A DNA stretch of 5,386 bases from Escherichia phage phiX174. Made by a program: the position numbers and the translations under genes. The notes under the pieces were generated by a model. That model was not told the origin of the DNA and searched no databases. It saw nothing but the letters and a program-made list of their open reading frames with translations. Positions 1 through 848 of the stretch are shown here, piece by piece (position 1 is the stretch's first letter; each line of letters begins with the position of its first letter). The DNA lies in the sequence record EF380029.1. One strand, written 5' to 3'.

Positions 1-51
1 GAGTTTTATCGCTTCCATGACGCAGAAGTTAACACTTTCGGATATTTCTGA
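1..51 (+). CDS. B: Internal scaffolding protein B, C-terminal segment; continues from 5075..5386 across the junction, stop TGA 49-51
   Basis: Reading GAG TTT TAT CGC TTC CAT GAC GCA GAA GTT AAC ACT TTC GGA TAT TTC TGA gives [16 protein letters not shown], the known B C-terminus; the stop overlaps the K start (TGATG, 49-53). Confidence 0.9.
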
Positions 52-136
52 TGAGTCGAAAAATTATCTTGATAAAGCAGGAATTACTACTGCTTGTTTA
101 CGAATTAAATCGAAGTGGACTGCTGGCGGAAAATGA
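1..136 (+). CDS. A: Replication initiation protein A, C-terminal segment; the ORF enters from 3981..5386 across the circular junction (codon 5385-5386+1) and stops at TGA 134-136
   Basis: Frame continuous with the open frame running from ATG 3981 to the window end; translation matches the phiX174 A C-terminus (...[31 protein letters not shown]); stop overlaps the C start as ATGA (133-136). Confidence 0.9.
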
Positions 137-221
137 GAAAATTCGACCTATCCTTGCGCAGCTCGAGAAGCTCTTACTTTGCGACCTTTCGCCATCAACT
201 AACGATTCTGTCAAAAACTGA
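51..221 (+). CDS. K: Protein K (small accessory protein, 56 aa), overlapping the end of A and the start of C
   Basis: ATG at 51, stop TGA 219-221; hand translation [56 protein letters not shown] matches phiX174 K. Missing from the ORF track, probably because it is below the length cutoff. Confidence 0.85.
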
Positions 222-369
222 CGCGTTGGATGAGGAGAAGTGGCTTAATATGCTTGGCACGTTCGTCAAGGACTGGTTTAGATATGAGTCACATTTTGTT
301 CATGGTAGAGATTCTCTTGTTGACATTTTAAAAGAGCGTGGATTATTATCTGAGTCCGATGTTGTTTAA
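133..369 (+). CDS. C: Protein C (DNA maturation/packaging switch), 78 aa in this copy; truncated relative to the 86-aa reference by an in-frame TAA at 367-369
   Basis: ATG at 133 inside the track ORF 115..369 (which starts at an upstream GTG); translation [78 protein letters not shown] matches phiX174 C up to residue 76. Confidence 0.85.
320..349 (+). promoter_or_regulatory. Promoter for the D-E-J-F-G-H transcript, inside gene C: -35 TTGACA (320-325), 18-nt spacer, -10 TATTAT (344-349)
   Basis: Consensus -35 hexamer and a near-consensus -10 at appropriate spacing, at the position of the known phiX174 D promoter (transcript start near 358). Confidence 0.6.
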
Positions 370-389
370 CCATTAATAGGTAAGAAATC

Positions 390-848
390 ATGAGTCAAGT
401 TATTGAACAATCCGTACGTTTCCAGACTGCTTTGGCCTCTATTAAGCTCATTCAGGTTTCTGCCGTTTTGGATTTAACCGAAGATGATTTCGATTTTCTG
501 ACGAGTAACAAAGTTTGGATTGCTACTGACCGCTCTCGTGCTCGTCGCTGCGTTGAGGCTTGCGTTTATGGTACGCTGGACTTTGTGGGATACCCTCGCT
601 TTCCTGCTCCTGTTGAGTTTATTGCTGCCGTCATTGCTTATTATGTTCATCCCGTCAACATTCAAACGGCCTGTCTCATCATGGAAGGCGCTGAATTTAC
701 GGAAAACATTATTAATGGCGTCGAGCGTCCGGTTAAAGCCGCTGAATTGTTCGCGTTTACCTTGCGTGTACGCGCAGGAAACATTGACGTTCTTACTGAT
801 GCAGAAGAAAACGTGCGTCAAAAATTACGTGCAGAAGGAGTGATGTAA
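390..848 (+). CDS. D: External scaffolding protein D (152 aa)
   Basis: Track ORF 390..848; translation MSQVIEQSVRFQTALASIKLIQVSAVLDL...RAEGVM matches phiX174 D apart from a few substitutions (T5I, A23V, T132I versus my recollection); stop TAA 846-848 overlaps the J start (TAATG). Confidence 0.95.
   Translation: MSQVIEQSVRFQTALASIKLIQVSAVLDLTEDDFDFLTSNKVWIATDRSRARRCVEACVYGTLDFVGYPRFPAPVEFIAAVIAYYVHPVNIQTACLIMEGAEFTENIINGVERPVKAAELFAFTLRVRAGNIDVLTDAEENVRQKLRAEGVM
568..843 (+). CDS. E: Lysis protein E (91 aa, MraY inhibitor), fully embedded in D in the +1 frame
   Basis: ATG at 568 (internal Met of the TTG-initiated track ORF 520..843) preceded by GAGG at 555-558; translation MVRWTLWDTLAFLLLLSLLLPSLLIMFIPSTFKRPVSSWKALNLRKTLLMASSVRLKPLNCSRLPCVYAQETLTFLLMQKKTCVKNYVQKE matches phiX174 E with two C-terminal substitutions. 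Confidence 0.9.
   Translation: MVRWTLWDTLAFLLLLSLLLPSLLIMFIPSTFKRPVSSWKALNLRKTLLMASSVRLKPLNCSRLPCVYAQETLTFLLMQKKTCVKNYVQKE

Follow-up and report, generated by a model that had tools for sequence, protein, structure and literature searches.

The gene C of the phiX174 genome analysed here terminates at a premature ochre codon, and this early stop is an ordinary, already deposited variant of a published, laboratory-evolved lineage. The stretch of DNA that was analysed, hereafter the window, comprises one complete phiX174 genome, 5386 nt in standard numbering (EF380029.1). Its C frame begins at ATG 133, reads MRKF...GLLSESDVV and is then closed by TAA at 367–369, past which the same frame runs on as PLIGKKS up to the ancestral TGA at 391–393. 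Translation gives 78 codons, whereas NC_001422, with C annotated at 133..393 and D at 390..848, has 86. A sequence-only reading had claimed this eight-codon shortening, and the details it gave for the reference, an 86 aa C whose TGA overlaps the D ATG within ATGA at 390–393, were all correct. As an in-frame stop is read directly from the sequence, chance is not at issue here; the meaning of the change is.

Position-by-position comparison with NC_001422 attributed the stop to C367T, which converts Gln79 from CAA to TAA (Q79*), and placed next to it C362T (GCT to GTT), which replaces Ala77 of protein C with Val; both substitutions had been proposed in the earlier reading. These two belong to a cluster of four of the 63 differences from the reference, the others being C346T, which is synonymous at L72 of C, and C373T, which now lies 3′ of the new stop. 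Between the new C stop and the start of D there is an untranslated gap of 20 nt (370–389), likewise as anticipated. The predicted product is identical to GenBank ABN49846.1, and the premature stop is a genuine, heritable C367T nonsense substitution.

In other respects gene C is unremarkable in its setting. It sits between A/K and D (K at 51–221, D at 390–848), its start overlaps the stop of A (ATGA, 133–136), and its residues 1–76 are identical to those of wild-type C (NP_040707, 86 aa) at the same genomic position, from which it differs by the absence of QPLIGKKS, by A77V and by a stop that no longer overlaps the D start. The features of the region, all on the plus strand, are as follows.

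133..369, plus strand: gene C, shortened, 78 codons and TAA, ending ...SESDVV (translation; Pfam Phage_C match)
320..349, plus strand: promoter pD inside gene C, −35 TTGACA at 320–325, 18-nt spacer, −10 at 344–349 (consensus scan)
362, plus strand: C362T, A77V, at about +5 of the pD transcript if this starts near 358; recurrent in the series (comparison)
367..369, plus strand: premature ochre stop TAA created by C367T (difference from NC_001422; in 24 of 24 series genomes)
370..389, plus strand: former C codons 80–86, now a 20-nt spacer, with the D ribosome-binding site (RBS) ATAGGT at 376–381 and C373T inside it (sequence; preprint location at codons I82/G83)
391..393, plus strand: ancestral C stop TGA, within the ATGA at 390–393 that overlaps the D start, no longer reached (translation)
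390..848, plus strand: gene D (external scaffolding protein), intact at 152 aa, with T5I (C403T) and other changes (identical to ABN49847.1)

Lineage and inheritance of the early stop

The window belongs to a series of 24 records, EF380009–EF380032, from the study of Silander, Tenaillon and Chao (PLoS Biol 2007; PMC1845161), in which a phiX174 clone supplied by B. Fane was taken through 100 passages at 32 °C to yield a high-fitness ancestor, and the lines derived from this were kept through plaque bottlenecks of 3, 10, 30, 100 or 250 and treated with hydroxylamine at every transfer. In that experiment 89 % of the substitutions were C>T, and the highest fitness was reached by the 100C and 250 lines (PMC1845161). 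When we compared the 23 other genomes of the series with the window, TAA was present at 367–369 in every one, each with C annotated at 133..369; the carriers include AP100 (EF380009), the derivatives of low fitness (DEL1 and DEL4) and every evolved line. Thus related isolates do end C at the same codon, the outcome of an alignment that the sequence-only reading had said would mark a clade variant.

AP100 differs from NC_001422 at only 11 positions (367, 833, 1460, 1650, 1727, 2085, 2731, 2811, 3121, 3139 and 4518), and all 11 differences are found in the window. Three of them (833, 2731 and 2811) are common to the usual laboratory/Illumina strain, whereas C367T is not. The subsequent history is equally legible, as 49 of the 63 differences between the window and NC_001422 are C>T on the viral strand, with no other class exceeding five. 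This genome-wide excess is the signature of hydroxylamine acting on single-stranded virion DNA, and marks the window as a mutagenised laboratory line. The nearest records were EF380021, EF380028 and EF380030 (99.4 % identity); these are 100C90, 250A55 and 250C55, which together with AP100 resemble the window in having TAA at 367–369, a 78 aa C, the 11 ancestral differences and the hydroxylamine C>T signature. The window carries 22 of the 24 derived changes of 100C90 and has 31 changes in common with each of 250A55 and 250C55, whilst a further 32 differences separate it from 100C90 (28 of them C>T, including C346T, C362T (A77V) and C373T around the stop). Its F, H, D and C proteins exactly match ABN49850, ABN49852, ABN49847 and ABN49846, numbers that lie between the protein blocks of EF380028 (ABN49831–41) and EF380030 (ABN49853–63), as expected for EF380029. 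Its place in the series suggests that the window is most likely line 250B, derived from population 100C by another 55 transfers.

Outside EF380009–EF380032 we found no T367 variant in the public collections and phiX contigs searched. All 121 public phiX contigs carry C at 367; an exact-pattern scan that allowed neighbouring Y variants did not find the T367 form in IMG/VR, GTDB representative genomes or JGI metagenomes; and perfect matches to the 60-mer of AP100 in the phage collection came from records of the series only. The wild-type (C367) form, by comparison, was present in at least 120 genome contigs. The early C stop is thus an inherited marker of a laboratory lineage, already fixed in AP100.

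A sequencing or assembly error, or a defective genome drawn from a mixed population, could in principle have produced the same reading, and the one point in favour of either is that nonsense changes are generally rare in essential phiX174 genes. Against them, T367 is common to 24 genomes, each deposited separately and distinct from the others at tens of positions; propagation was through plaques, and fitness was highest in the 100C and 250 lines. We rejected both on the strength of these concordant genomes and fit, plaque-propagated lines, and give them next to no weight. The sequence-only reading had offered a tolerated natural variant, a defective genome and a sequence error side by side; its word 'tolerated' holds, 'natural' must be replaced by laboratory-evolved, and the other two fall with the presence of TAA in the 23 other genomes, AP100 among them.

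Several further observations were made during these searches. The exact AP100-type 78 aa C was listed on 19 contigs, the longest of 5513 nt, a size typical of assembled phiX spike-in and not of the GenBank EF records; this may reflect a gene call cut off where a contig ends, or else another instance of T367. G3339A, A3189G and A1428G (in genes H and F) were present in 14, 12 and 9, respectively, of the 14 independent groups of lines, a pattern which points either to a mismatch at these sites between the sequenced AP100 clone and the population that truly founded the lines or to very strong parallel selection. Full phiX174 genomes with 98.8 % identity to the window were also contained in MZ417522 (Mycolicibacterium phage J1), MT947439 (Protaetiibacter phage SSC1) and PP417747 (ST5386), and at least 120 bacterial genome assemblies held phiX contigs of 5386–5513 nt. 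The occurrence of phiX in records from unrelated hosts and in bacterial assemblies is almost certainly sequencing spike-in contamination.

Conservation and drift of the protein C tail

The lost residues lie outside the conserved part of the protein. Pfam Phage_C (PF12025) matches residues 5–72 of the 78 aa C over profile positions 1–68 of 68 (170.3 bits, E = 7.6e-51), as compared with 169.9 bits for the 86 aa form, so that the whole domain is kept. As the top protein homologues of C were nearly all mis-assembled or oddly called phiX spike-in fragments, natural diversity was taken from tblastn instead, where similarity to phiX174 C in annotated phage records ended at residues 75–79. Across the other C proteins of the Bullavirinae (G4-like, alpha3-like and Salmonella phages; G4, ID2, lillemer and PJNS002) the last invariant column is S73, and beyond it the tails of these 84–86 aa proteins vary in sequence and length. 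A Lys/Gly pair near the end does recur, and coincides with the Shine–Dalgarno sequence of D (ATAGGTAAG in phiX174, AAAGGAAAC in G4), which leads us to infer that the tail sequence is dictated largely by the D leader. In a single-sequence AlphaFold2 model of low confidence (mean pLDDT 59), helices were predicted at 7–28, 34–54 and 57–68 and residues 75–86 fell below a pLDDT of 50; the tail is thus probably unstructured and outside a conserved three-helix core. What the window does not share with its relatives is the family norm, as natural Bullavirinae C proteins are 84–86 aa long and their genes overlap D by 4 nt or leave a 1-nt gap, compared with 78 aa and 20 nt here. An Rfam scan of the window matched no family.

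In order to see how the tail has evolved since the stop arose, we counted independent C>T events over the 14 independent groups of lines, with the following results by class of site.

Nonsynonymous C sites: 0.32 events per site
Synonymous C sites: 0.88 events per site
Non-coding C sites: 0.75 events per site
Stop-creating or stop-removing C sites: 1 event at 106 sites (in K of 10A90)
C tail sites, 370–389: 1.25 events per site (5 events at 4 sites)

The value for the tail compares with 0.86 per site at neutral sites. For the changes that would be P80S and P80L if the tail were still translated, we found three independent origins at two sites, as compared with 0.64 expected at the nonsynonymous rate. 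Following the stop, therefore, the C tail drifts in a neutral-like manner, which speaks against the tail peptide being needed, and also against suppressor read-through of the stop. As the tail is moreover neither conserved nor part of the Pfam domain, the peptide is probably dispensable in general.

Read-through deserves separate mention, since a host ochre suppressor would allow full-length C still to be made, much as in suppressed conditional-lethal mutants. The original study names the host simply as E. coli (mutT) and gives no suppressor genotype (PMC1845161), and in a recent preprint nonsense variants of phiX174 are almost always lethal (bioRxiv 10.64898/2026.07.25.740675), both of which leave room for such an explanation. 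The single change at 106 stop-creating or stop-removing C sites in the whole experiment, which fell in non-essential K of 10A90, argues against efficient suppression, however, and the frequency of the changes at codon 80 indicates no selection on the tail as a peptide. We accordingly consider read-through very improbable. That the experiment yielded a single nonsense substitution is the original authors' own observation (PMC1845161), reproduced here; it is presumably the K truncation of 10A90 (EF380013), in which K is annotated at 51..161 rather than 51..221. A premature stop was thus tolerated twice in this experiment, but K is dispensable as a whole (bioRxiv 10.64898/2026.07.25.740675), whereas C is essential and has lost only its tail in the window. 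The literature searched contained no mention of the gene C ochre mutant och6.

Gene D expression and the C/D junction

The promoter pD was the one sigma-70-like promoter that the consensus scan found in the region. From its geometry and from the classical transcript start, which we take to be at 358, pD transcripts should begin near 356–358; as such, the new C stop would lie only ∼10 nt into the D leader, and the C frame would be untranslated on pD transcripts. C346T alters the −10 element from TACTAT to TATTAT, which brings the consensus matches from 10 of 12 in the reference to 11 of 12 in the window, and the same change arose independently in 30A90. Published data fit this position: G319T and A323G are −35 mutations of the D promoter (PMC3606162), and synonymous changes at C codons V63, D64, L71, L72, S73 and S75 are deleterious, an effect attributed to pD (bioRxiv 10.64898/2026.07.25.740675). 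According to the same preprint, codons I82/G83 of C hold the D RBS, whilst C itself is translated from longer pB transcripts (PMC3608072).

With the C stop at 367–369 and the D ATG at 390–392, the two genes no longer form an ATGA stop/start pair. The sequence-only reading had suggested that translational coupling with D could thereby be removed. The overlap is indeed out of use, and its loss is real, but the effect on D is probably small, because pD should give rise to most D mRNA and D has an RBS of its own. Furthermore, an engineered phiX174 from which every overlap was removed is viable, if less fecund, and G4 (JF719730) provides a natural case in which the C stop and D ATG do not overlap: its C gene (84 aa) ends in TGA, followed by one base and the D ATG (653–659 region), so that the gap is 1 nt as opposed to 20 nt in the window, and its tail is unrelated to that of phiX174. 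ID2, lillemer and PJNS002, unlike G4, have a C stop overlapping the D ATG as in phiX174.

Among the 24 genomes, the strongest 50-nt excess of independent C>T events anywhere in the genome was found at 357–406, a segment that runs from the last part of C through the D leader into the opening codons of D. It holds 13 events at eight C sites, whereas the genome average predicts 3.5 and the neutral rate 6.9 (P about 0.02). The recurrent changes in and beside it are listed below.

C362T, A77V in C: at least 4 independent origins
C403T, T5I in D: 3 independent origins
C371T, in the tail, non-coding: 2 independent origins
C373T, in the tail, non-coding: 2 independent origins
C346T, pD −10 TACTAT to TATTAT: 2 independent origins

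Four of these five (346, 362, 373 and 403) are present in the window. C362T, which affects the penultimate residue of the shortened C and is a candidate target of positive selection, was found in 3C90, in 10A90, in 10E90/10F90 and in the window; C403T was found in 3D90, in 100B90 and in the 100C/250 clade. Relaxed constraint, a hydroxylamine mutational hot spot and tuning of D expression after the truncation are all possible sources of this activity.

The last of these could extend to the stop itself, in that C367T may have been selected during the 100 transfers, acting either in the D leader, at about position +10 of the pD transcript, or, on long transcripts, by freeing D translation from that of C, with the changes at 346, 362, 371, 373 and 403 later retuning D. 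C367T is one of at most eight AP100 differences absent from the common laboratory strain, and the excess at 357–406, the repeated origins of C362T and C403T and the twofold origin of a more consensus-like pD −10 would all accord with such a history. Predicted RNA folding of the leader (358–440) points the same way, as opening the D RBS is predicted to cost 6.7 kcal/mol with C367T, up from 4.2, and about 4.1 once 362T and 403T are added. These folding effects amount to 1–3 kcal/mol, however, and their sign flips or the effect vanishes with other boundaries (358–480, 300–440). Moreover, the P value of the hot spot is modest given the neutral rate and the many windows tested, and fixation in a single ancestor fits selection, hitch-hiking or pre-existence in the founding clone alike. 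We therefore think it rather unlikely that the stop was adaptive. The wider proposal, that the truncation freed seven overlapping codons as a 20-nt D leader and, with the loss of the ATGA, set off compensatory or tuning changes (346, 362, 371, 373, 403) that made the junction the fastest-evolving segment in the experiment, is similarly doubtful; if true, it would offer a small worked example of how the release of an overlap opens regulatory sequence to adaptation.

Proposed explanation and its meaning

C367T is inherited and, in the collections searched, restricted to this lineage, and we are strongly inclined to accept an explanation in which it leaves a functional 78 aa C and affects D little. 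The substitution was already fixed in AP100, the laboratory-adapted clone (100 transfers, 32 °C) that founded the hydroxylamine experiment, and removes C residues 79–86, a poorly conserved, probably unstructured tail whose codons appear to double as the D leader and Shine–Dalgarno region. Judging from viability and high fitness, the 78 aa C should still perform the switch to single-strand DNA synthesis and packaging. Expression of D would be largely unaffected, as most D mRNA would come from pD, ∼10 nt upstream of the new stop, and carry its own RBS; only on the long transcripts from pA or pB would ribosomes stop 20 nt before the D ATG, and there they would probably still be within reach of the D RBS.

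Our confidence is no higher mainly because of the preprint cited above, in which 99 % of nonsense variants are lethal and only protein K is named as an exception (bioRxiv 10.64898/2026.07.25.740675). If gpC Q79* were lethal in the wild type, the lines studied here would owe their tolerance of it to the AP100 background, to the mutT host or to growth at 32 °C. The truncation might thus be costly in a wild-type background, in another host or at another temperature, and dependent on other AP100 changes. A fitness value for C367T in a wild-type background should already be contained in the 2026 saturation-mutagenesis data.

Little of this is new, as the shortened C has been annotated in 24 GenBank records since 2007. 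For genome scanning, it illustrates how an early stop in a well-known reference genome can be the marker of an experimental-evolution stock, the origin being revealed in this case by the genome-wide C>T bias. With regard to the biology of the phage, the loss of the C tail agrees with its poor conservation in related phages, although the tail may be of some value in nature, as natural Bullavirinae all keep a C of 84–86 aa. Nevertheless, the last eight residues of the essential, 86-residue protein C, together with the C/D stop–start overlap, can go without preventing vigorous growth.
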